A stretch of 64,000 nt of DNA. Source: Candidatus Omnitrophota bacterium (lineage in GTDB: Bacteria > Omnitrophota > Gorgyraeia > Duberdicusellales > 4484-171). Positions 2,966-37,898 of this stretch are shown here, piece by piece. The stretch spans positions 133,956-197,955 of the forward strand of contig JBAWWL010000003.1 of NCBI GenBank assembly GCA_037146775.1, given 5' to 3'. Position 1 is the stretch's first letter. The number at the start of each line of letters is the position of its first letter. The position numbers were made by a program, and so were the translations under genes. Below the pieces are notes generated by a model. The model ran no database searches, had not been told where the DNA came from, and worked only from the letters and a program-made list of their open reading frames with translations.

Positions 2966-3445
2966 TTGTCGCGGGGGTATAGGAATATGGCAAAATTATC
3001 CGTTAACGATAAGATTTGTGTAATTATCACCAGCCTTTTTGGCGTTGGTTTTGCGCCGCTTTTCGGCGGCACGCTTGCTTCGGTTGTTGCGGTAGCCGTG
3101 TTTCTCCTGGTAAAAAGTCAGTTCTATTTTTCTCTGATTACTGTTTTTTCGATTATTCTTGCTTTTGCGTTATCCGGACACGCCGAAAAAATTTGGGACG
3201 AAAAAGATTCCAAGAAAATCGTTATTGATGATTTCTGCGGAATGCTTGTTTCGTTGCTGTTTATCCCGTACGACATGCGGATGGTGGCGTGTGGTTTTGT
3301 CGTATTTCGTTTGTTTGATGCTTTCAAGGTTCCGCCTATCGATAGAATCGAAAACCTCAAAGGCGCAGCCGGCGTAGTGGGCGACGATATAGCGGCCGGC
3401 CTGTATACCCTCGTTATTCTTCATATAACCAAACTTTTTATTTAA
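2966..3445 (+). CDS. pgpA: Phosphatidylglycerophosphatase A
   Basis: It has PgpA-family motifs ('DDFCGMLVSLLF', 'FRLFDAFKVPPI', 'GVVGDDIAAGLY'). It is adjacent to pgsA, as is common. Confidence 0.75.
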   Translation: MSRGYRNMAKLSVNDKICVIITSLFGVGFAPLFGGTLASVVAVAVFLLVKSQFYFSLITVFSIILAFALSGHAEKIWDEKDSKKIVIDDFCGMLVSLLFIPYDMRMVACGFVVFRLFDAFKVPPIDRIENLKGAAGVVGDDIAAGLYTLVILHITKLFI

Positions 3446-3448
3446 TGA

Positions 3449-3498
3449 GCACATTATTTTTTCTGCGTGTTTCCGCACTTAGAAAAAAATAATAGTGC
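3449..3498. repeat. About 48-nt AT-rich palindromic element (copy 1), immediately after the pgpA stop; terminator-like
   Basis: 'cacattattttttctgcgtgtttccgcacttagaaaaaaataatagtgc'. The arms are an inverted repeat (gcac-tattattttt / aaaaataat-gtgc). A near-identical element occurs at 37757-37806. Confidence 0.5.
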
Positions 3499-3585
3499 GA
3501 ATTATCCCGCCGTAGTCGCTAATAATTCCCTACGGTAATTCTTAGCGTATCTGGCGAAGGCGGGATAACGTCAAATCCACCGACT

Positions 3586-3704
3586 TATAGTCGGTGGTGG
3601 GGCTCAAGGGGGCGAAGTTCCCATACCCTATGTTGTCCACCAACAAAGTTGGTGGCAGGTATTCAAAGATATTTGGGAGAAACCACCGAAGAATTCGGTG
3701 GTAA
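3586..3704. other. Three consecutive hairpins with near-identical 8-bp stems CCACCRAM / KTYGGTGG (unexplained structured region between convergent genes)
   Basis: The hairpins are 'ccaccgacttatagtcggtgg', 'ccaccaacaaagttggtgg' and 'ccaccgaagaattcggtgg'. Upstream at about 3512-3572 is a nested pseudoknot-like set of inverted repeats (cccgcc/ggcggg, ccgtag/ctacgg, cgctaa/ttagcg). No ORF lies here on either strand. Confidence 0.4.
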
Positions 3705-3733
3705 TTCATGCGACTCGCTAGATACCCCCAACC

Positions 3734-23637: not shown

Positions 23638-25290
23638 ATGACAAATAAAAAGATATCTTTGCAACACGTAGCAATTTTGCTCATCTGTTCTTACGCATTA
23701 TTTGTACTGGGTAACGGTATCTTGGGCTTGACTAATGATAACGAAGTTTTTTATGCCCAAACCGCGAAAGAAATGATTCAGCAGAAAAGCTGGGCGACTC
23801 CCTATCTTTTTGGCCAGCCGCAGTTCGAAAAGCCGATTTTTACCTATTGGTTGCTACGAATTGGATTTTATCTCTTTGGAGTTTCTAGTTTTGGCGCGAG
23901 ATTCTTTCCTGCGCTGTTTGCTATTATTGGAGTCATAGCGGTTTATTTCTTAGGCTTGATCGGTTTTAAAGATGAGAAGAAAGCATTTCTCTCCGGTTTG
24001 ATCCTGATGTCTTCGGCTATGTATATTGGTTTGGGGAAAACGGTTTTTACCGACATGTTTTTCTCGGTGTTGATACTTTTGGCCTTGTTATTTTTCTTTT
24101 GGGGTTATAGCGATCAGCGCAAGAAAATGCTTGGGTTTATCTCTTTCGCCGTTTTTTCCGGCCTGGCGGTATTAACAAAAGGCCCCTTAGGGCTGATTAT
24201 CCCCGTGATTACGGTCGGTCTATTTCTATTATGCAAAAAAGATATTAAATTCTTGTTTTGCAAACATTTTATATTGAGTTTTTTTGTTTTCTTTTTGGTT
24301 GCCGGACCGTGGTATCTCTTGATGATTGCCAAATACGGAAATAATTTCATCCAAGAATTTATTTACAACGTCAATACCCGCAGGCTGGTTGAGGCGCAGC
24401 ATGTTTCCAACGATACCTGGTATTTTTATCCCCTTACTGTCATTACCAGCATGTTTCCCTGGAGTTTGTTTATCGCGGCCGCATTATTTTTTCTTCCTCG
24501 TTCTACCGTAAGAAAAGATAATCCTTTCTATCTTTTTTTAACCTGCTGGGCCGGGACTATTTTTTTGCTTTTTCAGCTTGCGCACTCCAAAGTCGCTAAC
24601 TACATTTTCCCTATATTTCCGGCCGTTGCCATACTTGTAGGCGGTTTTATCGTCGATATGTTAGCCGACAACAAACATAGGCGTTTACTCTTGTTTCTTT
24701 GCGGTGGTACATTATTTGTGATTCTACTTTTTCCGATAGGCTTTACGGTCAGTTTTAATATCTTCAAGGCATATATCGTATATAAATTGCCGGTTTACTC
24801 CTTAATTGTCGGGTTTGTCATATTAAGCGCGCTCATGCTTTTTTTCATGATCCGTAAGCGCATGCAAAACTTGGTATACGCTTTGGTGGCGGTTATGCCG
24901 ATTTTTTTAATTAATTTACCGCTGTTACATAAAAACTTCGAGGCCTATGTGTCTTCCAGGGCGGCTTGCGAATATTTACTCAAAAACTATCAAGTGGATA
25001 ACACTATTCTTTGTTCTAAGTTCTTTGTGCGCGGTATAAAATATTATACCGATAAAGATGTAGTTATAATTAATATCGGAGGAAAACCTTTTTTCAGTCG
25101 GCACGCGCTGCGTGCGTTAGATTCCCGGGAAAAAGTAAAGGATTTTTTATATACACAAGGCGTTACTTACTGCATCCTCAGTAAATCTTCCCTAAAAACC
25201 ATCAAGGATATCATTCCCGAAAAAAACATTACCGTACTCACACTTGCCGGAAATGAATACGTGGTGAAGGTAGAACTGCCTCGCAGCTAA
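23638..25290 (+). CDS. GT-C glycosyltransferase, ArnT/PMT family (GT83/GT39-like)
   Basis: It has about 12 TM helices, an early 'DNEVFYAQTAKEM' (DE-type) loop motif, and a C-terminal soluble domain. It is 550 aa. Confidence 0.8.
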   Translation: MTNKKISLQHVAILLICSYALFVLGNGILGLTNDNEVFYAQTAKEMIQQKSWATPYLFGQPQFEKPIFTYWLLRIGFYLFGVSSFGARFFPALFAIIGVIAVYFLGLIGFKDEKKAFLSGLILMSSAMYIGLGKTVFTDMFFSVLILLALLFFFWGYSDQRKKMLGFISFAVFSGLAVLTKGPLGLIIPVITVGLFLLCKKDIKFLFCKHFILSFFVFFLVAGPWYLLMIAKYGNNFIQEFIYNVNTRRLVEAQHVSNDTWYFYPLTVITSMFPWSLFIAAALFFLPRSTVRKDNPFYLFLTCWAGTIFLLFQLAHSKVANYIFPIFPAVAILVGGFIVDMLADNKHRRLLLFLCGGTLFVILLFPIGFTVSFNIFKAYIVYKLPVYSLIVGFVILSALMLFFMIRKRMQNLVYALVAVMPIFLINLPLLHKNFEAYVSSRAACEYLLKNYQVDNTILCSKFFVRGIKYYTDKDVVIINIGGKPFFSRHALRALDSREKVKDFLYTQGVTYCILSKSSLKTIKDIIPEKNITVLTLAGNEYVVKVELPRS

Positions 25291-26674: not shown

Positions 26675-27874
26675 ATGAAATACATTTTTATTGTTCCTGA
26701 CGGCGCCGCGGATTATCCTATTGAAATGCTTGCCGGTAAAACTCCTCTGGAGGCAGCGGACAAGCCATTTATGGATTCATTGGCTAAGAAAGGGATCCTG
26801 GGCAGAGTGAAAACCGTTCCAAGTGGATTTACTCCCGCCAGCGACGTGGCTAATCTTTCGCTTTTGGGTTATGAGCCGGAGAAATACTATTGTGGAAGAG
26901 GGCCTCTTGAAGCGGCGAATTTAGGCGTAACGTTAGAAGGGGGCGATGTGGCGTTTCGCTGTAATCTGATCACCGAAGCAGAAGGAAAAATTTTGGATTA
27001 TAGTGCCGGGCATATCAGTGACCACGAGGCAAAGCTGCTTATCGAACATATCAATACTAATGTAGGCACCAAAGAGATCGAATTTTATCCGGGTAAAAGT
27101 TACCGTCACCTGATGGTGTTTCGCCAGGGTGCCGGGCTTGGTCTTGAGAAGCTTACTTGTGTTGCTCCCCATGATATCATGGGCAAGCCTATAAAAAAAC
27201 ATATGCCGCAAGGTAAAAACAACGAAGTAATCGCAAAACTTATGCAGCGTTCGCAGGAGCTTCTCAAAGAGCATGAAATTAATAAGGTACGTATTGATTT
27301 GGGCGAAAATCCCGCTAATATGATTTGGCTCTGGGGTAGCGGGAAAAAGCCGGCGATCCCTCTGTTTCAGGAAAAATTCGGCTTACGCGGAGCGGTTATT
27401 TCCGCTGTTGATCTCATTAACGGGATTGGCAAAATTATCGGTTTGAAGGTTATTAAAGTGGAAGGAGCGAACGCTTATTATGATACCAATTATCAGGGTA
27501 AAGCCTTGGCTGCACTCGAAGCTTTGGAAGAGGTTGATTTTGTGTTTATCCACATAGAAGCAACGGATGAAGCCGGCCACAACCAGGATTTACGCATGAA
27601 AATTGCATGCATCGAACGCATCGATAAACTGGTGGTGGGAACGATTATCCAGAAAATGCAGGAAGGTACGTATCGGATCCTGATTGCTCCCGATCATCCT
27701 ACGCCGGTTTCAAAACGCACCCACACGGATGAGCCGGTGCCGTTTCTTATGGCCGGTAGCGGCATATCCAGCGGTGGTTTCTCTGCGTATTCGGAAACCG
27801 ATGCGGCAAATTCCAAGCTCTATTTGAATAGTGGTATAGAGTTGATGAAGTATTTTTTAAACCCGTCTCGTTAA
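26675..27874 (+). CDS. apgM: Cofactor-independent phosphoglycerate mutase, archaeal-type
   Basis: It has 'YIFIVPDGAADYP', 'FIHIEATDEAGH' and 'APDHPTP'. Confidence 0.85.
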   Translation: MKYIFIVPDGAADYPIEMLAGKTPLEAADKPFMDSLAKKGILGRVKTVPSGFTPASDVANLSLLGYEPEKYYCGRGPLEAANLGVTLEGGDVAFRCNLITEAEGKILDYSAGHISDHEAKLLIEHINTNVGTKEIEFYPGKSYRHLMVFRQGAGLGLEKLTCVAPHDIMGKPIKKHMPQGKNNEVIAKLMQRSQELLKEHEINKVRIDLGENPANMIWLWGSGKKPAIPLFQEKFGLRGAVISAVDLINGIGKIIGLKVIKVEGANAYYDTNYQGKALAALEALEEVDFVFIHIEATDEAGHNQDLRMKIACIERIDKLVVGTIIQKMQEGTYRILIAPDHPTPVSKRTHTDEPVPFLMAGSGISSGGFSAYSETDAANSKLYLNSGIELMKYFLNPSR

Positions 27875-27899
27875 AGATAAAAAATAATATTACGAAATA

Positions 27900-29468
27900 A
27901 TGAGCACATTTATTTTTTTAATAGTTTTGCTGGTGATGGTGGCCGGCTATTTTGTGTACGGACGATGGGTGAGCAGGTTCTTCGGTATCGACGTGTACCG
28001 CAAAACCCCCGCATATACGCATTATGACGGTATTGATTATGTCCCGTCGAAAAACTGGCTTATTCTTTTCGGTCACCATTTTGCTTCGATTGCCGGCGCC
28101 GGCCCGATTGTTGGACCGATATTTGCGTACATCTATTGGGGATGGTTCGGTGTGCTCTTGTGGATTATTTTTGGTTCGATTTTTATCGGAGGAATTCACG
28201 ATTTCGCGGCATTGTTTTTGTCGTTACGGGAAGGTGGCAGCAGTATCGGAGATATTGCAAAGAAATATATTTCTAAACGCGCAAGTATCATCTTTTTGAT
28301 TTTCCTCTGGATGGCTCTTATCCTGATAAACGCGGTGTTTGCTGCTTTATGTGCGCAGAGCTTTGTTGATGAGCCGAAGATTGTTTTTCCTTCTCTGGGG
28401 CTCATTCCGGTGGCAATGGTGGTAGGAGTGCTTCTCTATAAAATGAAAGCGAACACGCTTTTATCGACCGTTTTTGGTTTGTGTGCCCTGCTGTATTTGG
28501 TTGTTCTGGGTAACGGATTTCCCGTTGCGATAAGTAATAACGCGTATTATTTTTGGGTGGCCATACTTTTTATTTATTGCTTTCTGGCATCTGTGCTTCC
28601 GGTGAACATATTGCTTCAACCGCGCGATTATCTTTCCAGTTTTCTTTTATTTTTTGGCCTCGCGGTTTCTTGTTTGGCAATTGTAGTTAAGCCGCTTCCT
28701 CTGGAATCGGCTCATTTTTTTAAATTTTCTTCCCCGATCGGTTCTTTTTTCCCTTTACTTTTCATTACCGTTGCCTGCGGGGCGGTTTCCGGATTCCATG
28801 CCTTGGTTTCCAGTGGCACCACCTCCAAACAGCTCGCTTCGGAAAAAGACATACAAAAAATAGGTTACGGCGCAATGATTGTAGAGGCTATATTGGCGGC
28901 GGTGGCGCTATTTTGTGTTGTATTCGGCGTAAAAAAAATTCCGGCAGGAAAGACCCCCATAGACATTTTTGCTCTCGGTTTTTCAAATGTGGTATTTTTC
29001 TTGGGTAGTTACGCTAAACCGTTCGCGTTTTTATTGTTGAATGCGTTTATTCTGACCACTCTTGATACTTCAACGAGGATTACCCGTTATCTAACCCAGG
29101 AACTGTTTCATATCAATAATAAATATCTGGCGACGTGTGTAGTGGTGCTTTTTTCCGGCTATCTGTGTTTGAGCGGCCAATGGCAGATGCTTTGGCCGAT
29201 CTTTGGCGCATCGAACCAGCTGGTTGCGGGCTTGACGCTTTTGGTGGCAAGCGCGTATCTCCTGCAGCATAAAAAAAGTTGCCGTATAACCCTTATCCCT
29301 GCAGGCATTATGTTTGTTATCACCGGTTGCGCATTGGTGATACAGGCAATGGAATTTTTCAGCAAAAGAAATTATTTTCTCTTTGTAATCAATATAATAC
29401 TTATAGCGCTTGGTGTATTCATTGTTATGGAATTTTTTAAAAAAAGAAGGAGCATATATGCAGGCTAA
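27900..29468 (+). CDS. cstA: Carbon starvation protein A family transporter
   Basis: It has 'HHFASIAGAGPIVGPIFAYIYWGW' and multiple TM helices. It is 522 aa. Confidence 0.85.
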   Translation: MSTFIFLIVLLVMVAGYFVYGRWVSRFFGIDVYRKTPAYTHYDGIDYVPSKNWLILFGHHFASIAGAGPIVGPIFAYIYWGWFGVLLWIIFGSIFIGGIHDFAALFLSLREGGSSIGDIAKKYISKRASIIFLIFLWMALILINAVFAALCAQSFVDEPKIVFPSLGLIPVAMVVGVLLYKMKANTLLSTVFGLCALLYLVVLGNGFPVAISNNAYYFWVAILFIYCFLASVLPVNILLQPRDYLSSFLLFFGLAVSCLAIVVKPLPLESAHFFKFSSPIGSFFPLLFITVACGAVSGFHALVSSGTTSKQLASEKDIQKIGYGAMIVEAILAAVALFCVVFGVKKIPAGKTPIDIFALGFSNVVFFLGSYAKPFAFLLLNAFILTTLDTSTRITRYLTQELFHINNKYLATCVVVLFSGYLCLSGQWQMLWPIFGASNQLVAGLTLLVASAYLLQHKKSCRITLIPAGIMFVITGCALVIQAMEFFSKRNYFLFVINIILIALGVFIVMEFFKKRRSIYAG

Positions 29469-36718: not shown

Positions 36719-37711
36719 ATGGCACAGGTGTATTATGACAAGGACGCGGATCTTGATTTATTAAAAGGCAAAACCATCGCTATCATCGGCTACGGTATTC
36801 AGGGTCGCGGCCAGGCGTTGTGTTTACGCGATACGGGCTGTACCGTAATTGTTTCGGAGCTTTCAGGTACACCGAACTATGAGCAGGCAAAGAAAGATGG
36901 TTTTAATCCTGTTTCTGCCGCTCAGGCCGCTACAGAAGGAGACATTATCCAGATTTTAACTCAAGATCATGTACAGGCGAAAGTGTACGCAGAACATATT
37001 AAGCCAAACCTGAAAAAAGGAAAAGCGCTTTGTTTTTCGCACGGATTTAATATCCGTTTTAAACAGATAAAACCGCCAAAAAATGTAGACGTCTTTATGG
37101 TTGCTCCTAAGGGCCCAGGAGCTTTGGTGCGGCGTATGTATGAGGAAGGTAAGGGTGTTCCTTGTTTAGTCGCAGTTTTCCAGGATGGATCAGGCCAGGC
37201 AAAACAGCTTGCGCTTGCTTATGCGAAAGCCATCGGCGGTACTCGCATGGGAGTTATTGAAACAACTTTTGCGGAAGAGACCGAAACCGATTTATTTGGT
37301 GAACAGGCGGTGCTTTGCGGTGGTGTCAGTGAGCTGATCAAGGCTGGTTTTGATACTTTGATCGAAGCAGGATATCAACCGGAGATTGCTTATTTCGAAG
37401 TACTACACGAATTAAAGCTCATTACAGATTTAATACAGGAATTTGGTATCAGCGGAATGCGGCGCCGAGTTTCCAATACTGCGTGTTACGGTGATCTCAC
37501 CAGGGGGCCGATGGTAGTTAACGAAAAAACACGTAAAACCATGCAAAAGATTCTTAAAAGTATCCGCTCGGGAAAGTTTGCGCGGGAATGGATCAAAGAA
37601 AATGAAGCCGGCAGAAAGAATTTTGATAGCCTTTTGAAGAAAGGCGATGAACACAAAATAGAACAAGTAGGAAAACAGCTTCGGGAAATGATGCCTTGGA
37701 TGAAAAAATAG
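36719..37711 (+). CDS. ilvC: Ketol-acid reductoisomerase
   Basis: It has '[23 protein letters not shown]' and '[12 protein letters not shown]'. The RBS is 'aaggagg'. Confidence 0.9.
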
Positions 37712-37756
37712 ATCCTTCGGTTGCTTTGCAGCCTCAGGATTAATTCGCACTATTAT

Positions 37757-37806
37757 TTTTTTGCGTGCCTTTGACACTTGGAAAAATAATGTGCTTATTA
37801 AAATGA
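37757..37806. repeat. About 48-nt AT-rich palindromic element (copy 2), 45 nt after the ilvC stop
   Basis: 'gcactattatttttttgcgtgcctttgacacttggaaaaataatgtgc' is near-identical to 3449-3498. Confidence 0.5.
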
Positions 37807-37827: not shown

Positions 37828-37898
37828 AACAGAAGACAGAAAACAGAAGTCAGATAATTTTTTTCTGACCTCTGTCATCTGATATCTGACTTCTGAAT
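37828..37898. repeat. Heptad repeat element in hairpin configuration (site C): four direct RACAGAA heptads, a T-run loop, five inverted heptads
   Basis: 'aacagaa gacagaa aacagaa gtcagat aattttttt ctgacct ctgtcat ctgatat ctgactt ctgaata'. Confidence 0.65.

Follow-up and report, generated by a model that had tools for sequence, protein, structure and literature searches.

The window, a 64-kb stretch of Candidatus Omnitrophota DNA, carries two copies of an AT-rich hairpin repeat (Table 1). Copy 1 lies at the end of pgpA, in the neighborhood pgsA-pgpA, convergent thpR and a cinA-domain gene, and copy 2 lies between the last two genes of the series ilvB-ilvN-ilvC-leuA. These gene assignments were confirmed. 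Omnitrophota MAGs encode proteins 85–96% identical to the IlvC of the window, and P0121, an NCBI Omnitrophota MAG protein, matches the window PgpA at 100% identity across 96% of the PgpA length.

Table 1. Features of the two repeat-bearing intergenic regions (window coordinates)
Feature	Position	Strand	Basis or description
Hairpin repeat copy 1	3441..3506; core palindrome 3449-3498	-	covariance models, fold
Hairpin repeat copy 2	37739..37802; core palindrome 37747-37794	+	covariance models, fold
Whole pgpA-thpR intergenic region	3446..3733		extent of inserted hairpin-rich DNA, 288 nt
pgpA stop codon TAA	3443..3445	+	inside outer stem of element (TTTAATGAG)
GC-rich hairpin TTATCCCGCC...GGCGGGATAA	3502..3568		adjoins copy 1; inverted repeat, 10-nt arms, 100% complementary
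GC-rich hairpin ATCCTTCGGTTGC-TTT-GCAGCCTCAGGAT	37712..37740	+	directly past ilvC stop, before copy 2
Decaying duplicate of ilvC 3' end ATGATGCCCTGGATGAAAAACAAATAA	37803..37829	+	~27-nt direct repeat flanking insertion

The core of copy 1 (GCACATTATTTTTTCTGCGTGTTTCCGCACTTAGAAAAAAATAATAGTGC), an AT-rich imperfect palindrome, starts 3 nt past the pgpA stop codon, exactly where the preliminary description had placed it. Copy 2 had been assigned to 37757-37806, 45 nt from the ilvC stop; its true place is given in Table 1, and the distance from the stop codon (37709-37711) is 35 nt. The identity of the two copies, previously put at about 85%, is 79% (41/52) when both are read on the same strand. 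When the plus strand of copy 1 was aligned with the minus strand of copy 2, the arms with 7-8-nt flanks (TTTAATNAGCACATTATTTTT ... AAAAAAATAATAGTGCGAATTA) matched at 43 of 44 positions, and the ~20-nt centre differed. This inverted alignment sets the ends of the repeat, so that the palindrome of about 48 nt described earlier holds as the palindromic core, and the full repeat is longer, at ~62–66 nt with its flanks. The same-strand alignment had looked good because the tip of copy 1 is flipped relative to the arms, as it also is in locus L035.

The similarity of the copies is indeed far beyond chance. A two-arm pattern matched these two sites only in the window, with 0.00 matches expected (100 shuffles), and covariance models gave E-values of 1e-15 to 1e-17. 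Copy 1 scored 66.3 bits (E 1e-15) with model R1 on the minus strand versus 39.9 on the plus strand, and 57.9 versus 31.7 bits with model R2. Copy 2 scored 72.8 bits (E 2e-17) with R1 on the plus strand versus 37.1 on the minus strand, and 62.4 versus 25.2 bits with R2. The strand difference of 26–37 bits in each copy indicates that the near-palindrome has a definite orientation. The family orientation is the minus strand for copy 1, where it reads GATAATTC-GCACTATTATTTTTTT-CTAAGTGCGGAAACACGCAG-AAAAAATAATGTGC-TCATTAAA with TCATTAAA facing pgpA, and the plus strand for copy 2, so the two copies are mutually inverted.

No other full copy was detected in the 64-kb window with models R1 and R2. A third candidate at 27841-27901 was rejected: the match is weak (E 1e-3 to 0.1), unfolded (z +0.9) and overlaps the 3' end of a coding region, and is probably due to chance or possibly a fully decayed copy. 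This weak match (27841-27925) lies just upstream of a gene for a 522-aa membrane protein, the first codons of which (ATGAGCACATTTATTTTTTT) resemble the outer flank plus arm. An AT-rich hairpin at 24483-24522 (ATTATTTTTTC...GAAAAGATAAT) matched the inner stem of the model only (E 0.007–1.8); it is devoid of the GCAC/GTGC base and the flanks and is probably unrelated to the repeat. No gathering-level Rfam match was found anywhere in the window, and a known Rfam RNA family was discarded, as matches around both copies were at chance level (at most 26 bits, E at least 0.001). Our literature search returned no paper on this repeat family.

Insertions at pgpA-thpR and ilvC-leuA

Both intergenic regions were compared with those of related genomes. 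The gap between pgpA and thpR is 288 nt in the window versus 28 nt in the closest relative (L044), whose PgpA is 88% identical, and the two genes overlap in L045. The relative without the element reads TTTCATGAGG, with a TGA stop one codon later, versus TTTAATGAG-CAC in the window; the insertion therefore joined at a site already resembling the element end. The insertion shortened PgpA by one residue. The 288-nt region is made up of the palindrome, the adjoining GC-rich hairpin, which holds the place of the "inner inverted repeat" hairpin of related composites, and three small CCACC...GGTGG hairpins. These small hairpins, at 3577-3597 (CCACCGAC..GTCGGTGG), 3637-3655 (CCACCAAC..GTTGGTGG) and 3683-3701 (CCACCGAAG..TTCGGTGG), occur only in the pgpA-thpR insertion, with 0.00 chance pattern matches in shuffles, and may be a second mini-repeat family.

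At the other site, the gap between ilvC and leuA is 200 nt in the window versus 50 nt, with no element, in the closest relative (L037), whose IlvC and LeuA are 96% and 89% identical to those of the window. The element is present in the window and in L019 and absent in L037, L038, L041 and L043; the LeuA of L019 is only 78% identical to that of the window, yet both share the insertion. In both genomes it consists of a GC hairpin, the palindrome and then a duplicated ilvC 3' end. The functional end of ilvC in the window (37688-37711) reads ATGATGCCTTGGATGAAAAAATAG and encodes the C-terminus MMPWMKK*. As this terminus is the common state in 120 homologues, the downstream duplicate is the decaying original. 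Such a flanking duplication (~27 nt) is limited to the ilvC site, in the window and its orthologue L019: at 30 of the 33 exact-arm copies no flanking direct repeat of at least 10 nt was found, and a long target duplication was therefore rejected as a general feature. A TTAA target-site duplication was likewise dismissed, since variants of the type TCAA...TTGA stand in an inverted and not a direct relation.

Four-fold degenerate sites have reached saturation (36% identity) in the comparison of the window with L019, yet the GC hairpin and left arm are identical at 48 of 51 positions. This match, despite saturation, argues for selection, homing or gene conversion and not for neutral junk. Taken with the patchy distribution, it would reflect one of two histories at the ilvC site: the element was either under strong constraint and precisely lost in L037, or it spread laterally, in a homing-like manner, together with short co-converted flanks. 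A long imperfect hairpin (37830-37895, CAGAAGACAG...CTGACTTCTG, -23 kcal/mol, z -3.2) lies downstream of the duplicated ilvC tail, ahead of leuA. The orthologous stretch of L019 is also a long palindrome, of unrelated sequence.

Each window copy is an ORF-less two-hairpin remnant in which a GC hairpin is followed by TAATTC, the palindrome and TYATTAAA. The two-hairpin module beside pgpA folds at -46 kcal/mol (z -6.8). Modules of this type were also found in L005, L009, L016, L019 and L031. For genes that bear the element elsewhere, no empty orthologous site was seen within the window. Both window copies are lineage-specific insertions.

Repeat family, hairpin structure and placement

The copies had been proposed to belong to a REP-like repeat, a proposal that hinged on the existence of further copies. 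We found 31 further exact-arm copies and about 25 diverged copies, all of them intergenic and hairpin-forming and nearly all from Candidatus Omnitrophota MAGs or unbinned metagenome contigs, which supports a REP-like, lineage-specific family. Sampling comprised one genome per species plus one metagenome scan. The first scan applied a degenerate two-arm pattern to prokaryotic genomes, one per species. Of its 17 loci, 11 came from Omnitrophota MAGs, two (L004 and L006) had the same element under another bin label, and four looked like chance matches. The second, with the canonical pattern over JGI metagenomes, added 19 loci. Loci were ascertained by the exact-arm pattern, and the conservation of the arms is therefore partly an ascertainment effect; flanks outside the search pattern are also common to all family loci. 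A single MAG, STB_55, contains six exact-arm copies at different loci, and the tips of L001 and L033, two non-orthologous loci, are identical. Phage carriage was rejected, as the viral contigs scanned contained no copy.

The consensus unit of ~62 nt reads TTAATTC-GCACTATTATTTTTTC-(variable GC tip)-GAAAAAATAATGTGC-TCATTAA, with a tip of 15–37 nt that is usually CTGCGYGC..GCRCTTG. Fold prediction of both window copies gave stable hairpins, both as RNA (-17 to -20.5 kcal/mol, z -4.5 to -6.5) and as DNA (-10 to -13 kcal/mol, z -4.4 to -4.7). Copy 1 was predicted to fold at -17.7/-20.5 kcal/mol as RNA and -12.7 as DNA, and copy 2 at -17.2 kcal/mol (z -4.5) as RNA. Besides the tip, the predicted stem comprises 5 + 4 + 11 pairs, with a UC/UC internal loop and a one-nucleotide bulge. 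Its conserved lower part runs TTAAT, UC-UC internal loop, GCAC, 1-nt bulge in the 5' arm, ATTAT and T6:A6. Across the family, the 5-bp outer helix, the GC-rich helix of 4-5 bp, the extra 5'-arm nucleotide and a T5-6:A5-6 helix are conserved. The GC-rich tip varies freely and is wholly different between orthologous loci with flanks ~95% identical.

Exact-pattern arms are invariant by construction, and covariation was judged outside the pattern and on diverged copies found with the models. Among 28 diverse copies, compensatory change was observed in 17 of 23 pairs (93 cells); none of 500 shuffles reached this score, and slid controls gave 5–22 cells. The arms of these copies vary as ATCAT/ATGAT, TGTGAT/ATCAC and GACTACACGG/TCGTGTAGTC. 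The outer stem, which lies outside the search pattern, covaries as well (TAATTC...TCATTA versus CAATTC...TCATTG; pair 3-82 is UA in 20 copies and CG in 6). Judged by this covariation, the hairpin structure is selected. The right hairpins of the L046, L048 and L034 cassettes described below keep TTAATTC...TCATTAA and the closing GCA...TGC, and their AT-rich stem is swapped for a GC-rich one (GCAGAC...GTCTGC). The swap is seen even at a site orthologous to L022/L025, suggesting that whole stems are exchanged and not tips alone.

Placement relative to genes is regular. In about 27 of 33 copies, both neighboring genes are co-directional with the orientation of the element as defined by its arms. 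The TCATTAA side always points toward the adjacent gene, a rule that copy 1 obeys for pgpA and copy 2 toward leuA. The right outer end abuts the Shine-Dalgarno sequence of the next gene (TCATTAAAGGAGG): AGGAGG begins 7-8 nt past the hairpin, and the gene usually starts 15-19 nt past it. The downstream genes, identified from N-terminal sequences, are diverse and of the housekeeping type (ahcY, clpP, pfkA, argG, a response regulator, an RNase J-like protein and one tRNA). A second, more diverged, inverted copy lies upstream, usually at a distance of 50–300 nt. In 11 of 17 such left-end copies, an ORF of 148 aa or more ends with its stop codon at +0 to +5, within the motif TNAAATGAG. The layout from left to right is stop codon, left hairpin (H1), GAATTTA, inner inverted repeat, interior, inner inverted repeat, TTAATTC, right hairpin (H3), TCATTAAAGGAGG and ATG.

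Two potential functions of the element itself were considered and rejected. A conserved mini-ORF would start at the ATG of AATGAG (copy 1: MSTLFFLRVSALRKK), which is present in 15 of 17 left-end copies; the frames range from 2 to 38 codons with no sequence conservation, and in L047 the ORF is fused in frame to a GIY-YIG ORF. The mini-ORF is no peptide gene; translational coupling is possible. A sigma-70 promoter was discarded, as there are no -35/-10 boxes at fixed spacing, the arms lie a variable 14–37 nt apart, and a promoter scan was empty at both sites. Directly upstream of a canonical palindrome in L021 (about 600-710), a 35-nt unit that forms a GC hairpin (CCCGCGAACTCCGAACGACTTCGCGGG) is repeated three times in tandem.

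GIY-YIG genes between the hairpin ends

In L004, L022/L025 and L034, the interior of the element holds an ORF of 76–84 aa with a GIY-YIG domain (PF01541, 45–60 bits); the nearest solved structures are the UPF0213 proteins BH0048 and EF2693. The ORF is bracketed by an inner inverted repeat of 16–18 bp, e.g. CCCCCACACCAATTAT / ATAATTGGTGTGGGGG; in ORF-less composites, this sequence makes up the long "middle hairpin". Versions with and without the GIY-YIG ORF have the same ends and the same inner repeat (CCCCCACACCAA/TTGGTGTGGGGG). As an independent test, we inspected the genomic context of four GIY-YIG homologues (L046-L049) that were picked by protein similarity alone (70–80% identity). All four had R2 matches on both sides in inverted orientation, eight matches in total; control loci (~29 kb) gave one weak model match.

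The GIY-YIG cassettes occupy six distinct sites (8 loci) between co-directional housekeeping genes, including fabG-acpP, cation-efflux-nifU and a site downstream of pfkA. At the orthologous fabG-acpP site, the cassette was inherited vertically in three lineages, and the nuclease gene shows a dN/dS of 0.10–0.22 with dS up to 0.9, and so encodes a functional protein. Vertical inheritance together with purifying selection at this site would also fit a domesticated host function. In the 64-kb window, neither a GIY-YIG gene nor the common-type inner inverted repeat TTGGTGTGGGGG is present. As the window has no GIY-YIG gene, any mobilization of its two copies would need to act in trans.

Two further arrangements were noted. 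L033 (250-760, minus strand) carries a related GIY-YIG gene, without hairpin ends, beside a tRNA gene with a CAT (Met-type) anticodon. Ahead of this GIY-YIG gene, the 5' half of the tRNA is duplicated in partial and interrupted form (CGCGGGGTGGAGCAGACA..CAGGTAGCTC..CAAGGCTCATAACC), an arrangement that resembles an insertion in which the target was duplicated at the anticodon loop. L046 (2572-2952) carries, among fatty-acid synthesis genes and near the GIY-YIG cassette, a gene for a 23S rRNA intervening-sequence protein (PF05635) that has no hairpin-model match beside it. Genes for 23S rRNA intervening-sequence proteins are a small gene family and are often insertion-like.

Interpretation and comparison with known systems

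We consider the two window copies to be, with fair probability, ORF-less, MITE/REP-like remnants of a hairpin-ended GIY-YIG cassette within an Omnitrophota repeat family. This reading starts from what was observed directly, i.e. family membership, covariation, insertion polymorphism, association with GIY-YIG genes, and placement relative to the stop codon and Shine-Dalgarno sequence. Mirror-image ends, ORF-bearing and ORF-less versions, dispersed copies and insertion polymorphism fit a mobile cassette with MITE-like derivatives. In its full form, the cassette would consist of two inverted hairpins and the inner inverted repeat of 16–18 bp bracketing a ~80-aa GIY-YIG (UPF0213-like) gene. It would sit between co-directional genes, with its left end over the upstream stop codon and its right end against the Shine-Dalgarno sequence. 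Loss of the gene in many copies may have produced the MITE-like composites, and the window copies, each with one GC hairpin and one terminal hairpin, would be still smaller remnants.

Extruded hairpin or cruciform DNA ends would be recognized by a trans-acting nuclease, for which the small GIY-YIG enzyme is a plausible candidate, and copies could spread via break repair or copying. Against this, a GIY-YIG domain of 80 aa lacks a DNA-binding module and is not known as a transposase. When transcribed, the hairpins would fold beside the stop codon and the Shine-Dalgarno sequence, so that insertion might be tolerated within operons, where they may serve as processing or stability hairpins and not as intrinsic terminators. 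More tentatively, we suggest that the family might represent an undescribed and very compact class of mobile cassette, in which a ~80-aa UPF0213-type GIY-YIG nuclease cuts hairpin or cruciform termini structure-specifically, with seamless insertion at stop codons and ribosome-binding sites.

The regular placement could also be explained by a host cis-acting RNA, i.e. an intercistronic or 5'-UTR RNase III-type site, an mRNA-stabilizing stem or a translation insulator that is selected via its neighbors and of which the GIY-YIG gene is one user. The strong orientation bias relative to flanking genes, the fixed Shine-Dalgarno spacing, the extensive covariation and a module that is 94% identical where synonymous sites are saturated all favor this explanation. 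In addition, the stem, with its 20 or more bp, internal loop and bulge, is similar to the RNase III sites of phage T7. However, the element is missing from the closest relative at both window loci, and only two of the dozens of intergenic regions in the 64-kb window contain a copy. The ends of the composites are mirror images, as expected of DNA termini; as RNA, they would present differing asymmetric features. One family copy is followed after 6 nt by a tRNA gene, and window copy 1 is directed into pgpA antisense. G-U pairs (~10) and A-C mismatches (~12) are about equally frequent in the family; this comparison, used as a probe for an RNA-strand signature, was uninformative and gave none. We therefore regard a host RNA as a rather unlikely origin of the family. 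A host RNA role in processing, stability or ribosome-binding-site insulation is nevertheless partly compatible with the cassette reading and is a live alternative.

The preliminary description had also considered the copies terminator-like, which would make them a family of Rho-independent or bidirectional terminators placed after genes. Copy 1 does belong to a convergent gene pair and begins at the stop codon of pgpA, copy 2 does follow ilvC, and both copies fold stably. The geometry, however, is not that of an intrinsic terminator, because a T-run (T6) precedes the tip and an A-run (A6) follows it on both strands, and no U-tract lies past the stem. The sequence there is GAAUUAU in copy 1 (plus strand), UCAUUAAA in the family orientation and UUAUUAAA in copy 2. 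The stem is mostly A-U (28–30% GC) and not compact and GC-rich, a scan for terminators called neither window site, and most family members lie within co-directional gene pairs, 7-8 nt before a Shine-Dalgarno sequence, and not at the ends of transcription units. A terminator family is accordingly improbable.

We find it quite improbable that the repeat is a REP/REPIN family mobilized by a RAYT (Y1 HUH transposase) with an incidental GIY-YIG association. Short imperfect intergenic palindromes as inverted doublets with a variable spacer, a conserved bulged base and a GTAG beside left-end copies (GTAGYCGAATT) would agree with such a system, but the gene that recurs between inverted copies is the GIY-YIG gene, and no RAYT-like gene was noticed between or beside copies in a non-systematic look through ~250 kb of loci. 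An operator for a dimeric DNA-binding regulator, or an invertible promoter switch with flanking inverted repeats, would account for palindromic, highly conserved arms and for inverted copies flanking 50–300 bp directly upstream of a gene, but is very improbable given arms spaced 14 to 37 nt apart, a tip that covaries as a stem, left and right copies of one composite that are too different for recombination cores, an interior made of a hairpin or a nuclease gene between housekeeping neighbors, and a sigma-70 scan with no promoter-like site in or beside either window copy.

The Omnitrophota are an uncultured group whose non-coding DNA is essentially undescribed. The covariance models R1 and R2 provide a concrete, searchable signature of the family, which explains some intergenic regions that are 4–10 times longer than in sister genomes. 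For annotation, the repeat calls for caution since it alters gene ends, as in pgpA minus its last codon and ilvC with a duplicated tail. Because the repeat is consistently paired with a minimal GIY-YIG gene, the long-standing question of the role of small stand-alone UPF0213-like proteins becomes directly testable. If the compact-cassette reading is true, it would give a biological role to the widespread UPF0213/COG2827 proteins and explain the intergenic architecture of Omnitrophota.

Among known systems, integron attC sites were excluded, as the ends (TTAATTC/TCATTAA) have no GTTRRRY, the pairs are inverted and not direct, and the neighbors are housekeeping genes. The REP, BIME and REPIN elements of proteobacteria, which are RAYT-mobilized, are likewise short imperfect palindromes of tens of copies, strictly intergenic and lineage-specific, often located right past stop codons, arranged in inverted doublets and clustered with other hairpins. 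Here, there are 33 exact-arm and ~25 diverged copies, and inverted pairs lie 50–300 nt apart. In contrast to REP, the gene involved is a GIY-YIG nuclease and not a Y1 HUH transposase, the palindrome is AT-rich with a T6:A6 core, a hypervariable tip and a conserved lower stem, and one end is systematically placed against the downstream Shine-Dalgarno sequence. 

Like the MITEs Correia (Neisseria) and ERIC (enterobacteria), the elements are non-coding, inverted-repeat-bounded insertions in transcribed intergenic DNA that form long hairpins and show presence/absence polymorphism among relatives, with ORF-less forms related to an ORF-bearing form. Terminal inverted repeats are represented by H1 and H3 around the inner inverted repeat. 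Unlike in MITEs, there is no regular, fixed-length target-site duplication, each terminus is a complete palindrome of ~62 nt, and the candidate "autonomous" form encodes only an 80-aa nuclease domain. The intercistronic RNase III sites of phage T7 are also hairpins just upstream of a ribosome-binding site, 20 bp or longer and interrupted by an internal loop or bulge, and the predicted stem, of about 20 bp or more with an internal loop, would qualify as such an intercistronic hairpin; the elements described here differ in being insertion-polymorphic and in occurring as mirror-image pairs.

A further comparison concerns free-standing GIY-YIG homing endonuclease genes, e.g. the seg genes of phage T4 (PMC2988022). 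The cassettes differ from these in size and content, with ~80 aa that comprise only the catalytic domain and are closest to UPF0213 BH0048/EF2693, in their structured inverted hairpin bounds, in the dispersal of ORF-less derivatives within one genome, and in their location on a bacterial chromosome and not in phage, with no copies in viral contigs. A GIY-YIG gene lies inside the element in L004, L022, L025, L034 and L046-L049, unlike in the ORF-less copies of the window. The elements show presence/absence between conserved genes at both ilvC-leuA and pgpA-thpR. Like free-standing homing genes, the GIY-YIG genes are wedged between conserved co-directional genes and patchy among relatives, with near-identical flanking tracts that would fit co-conversion.
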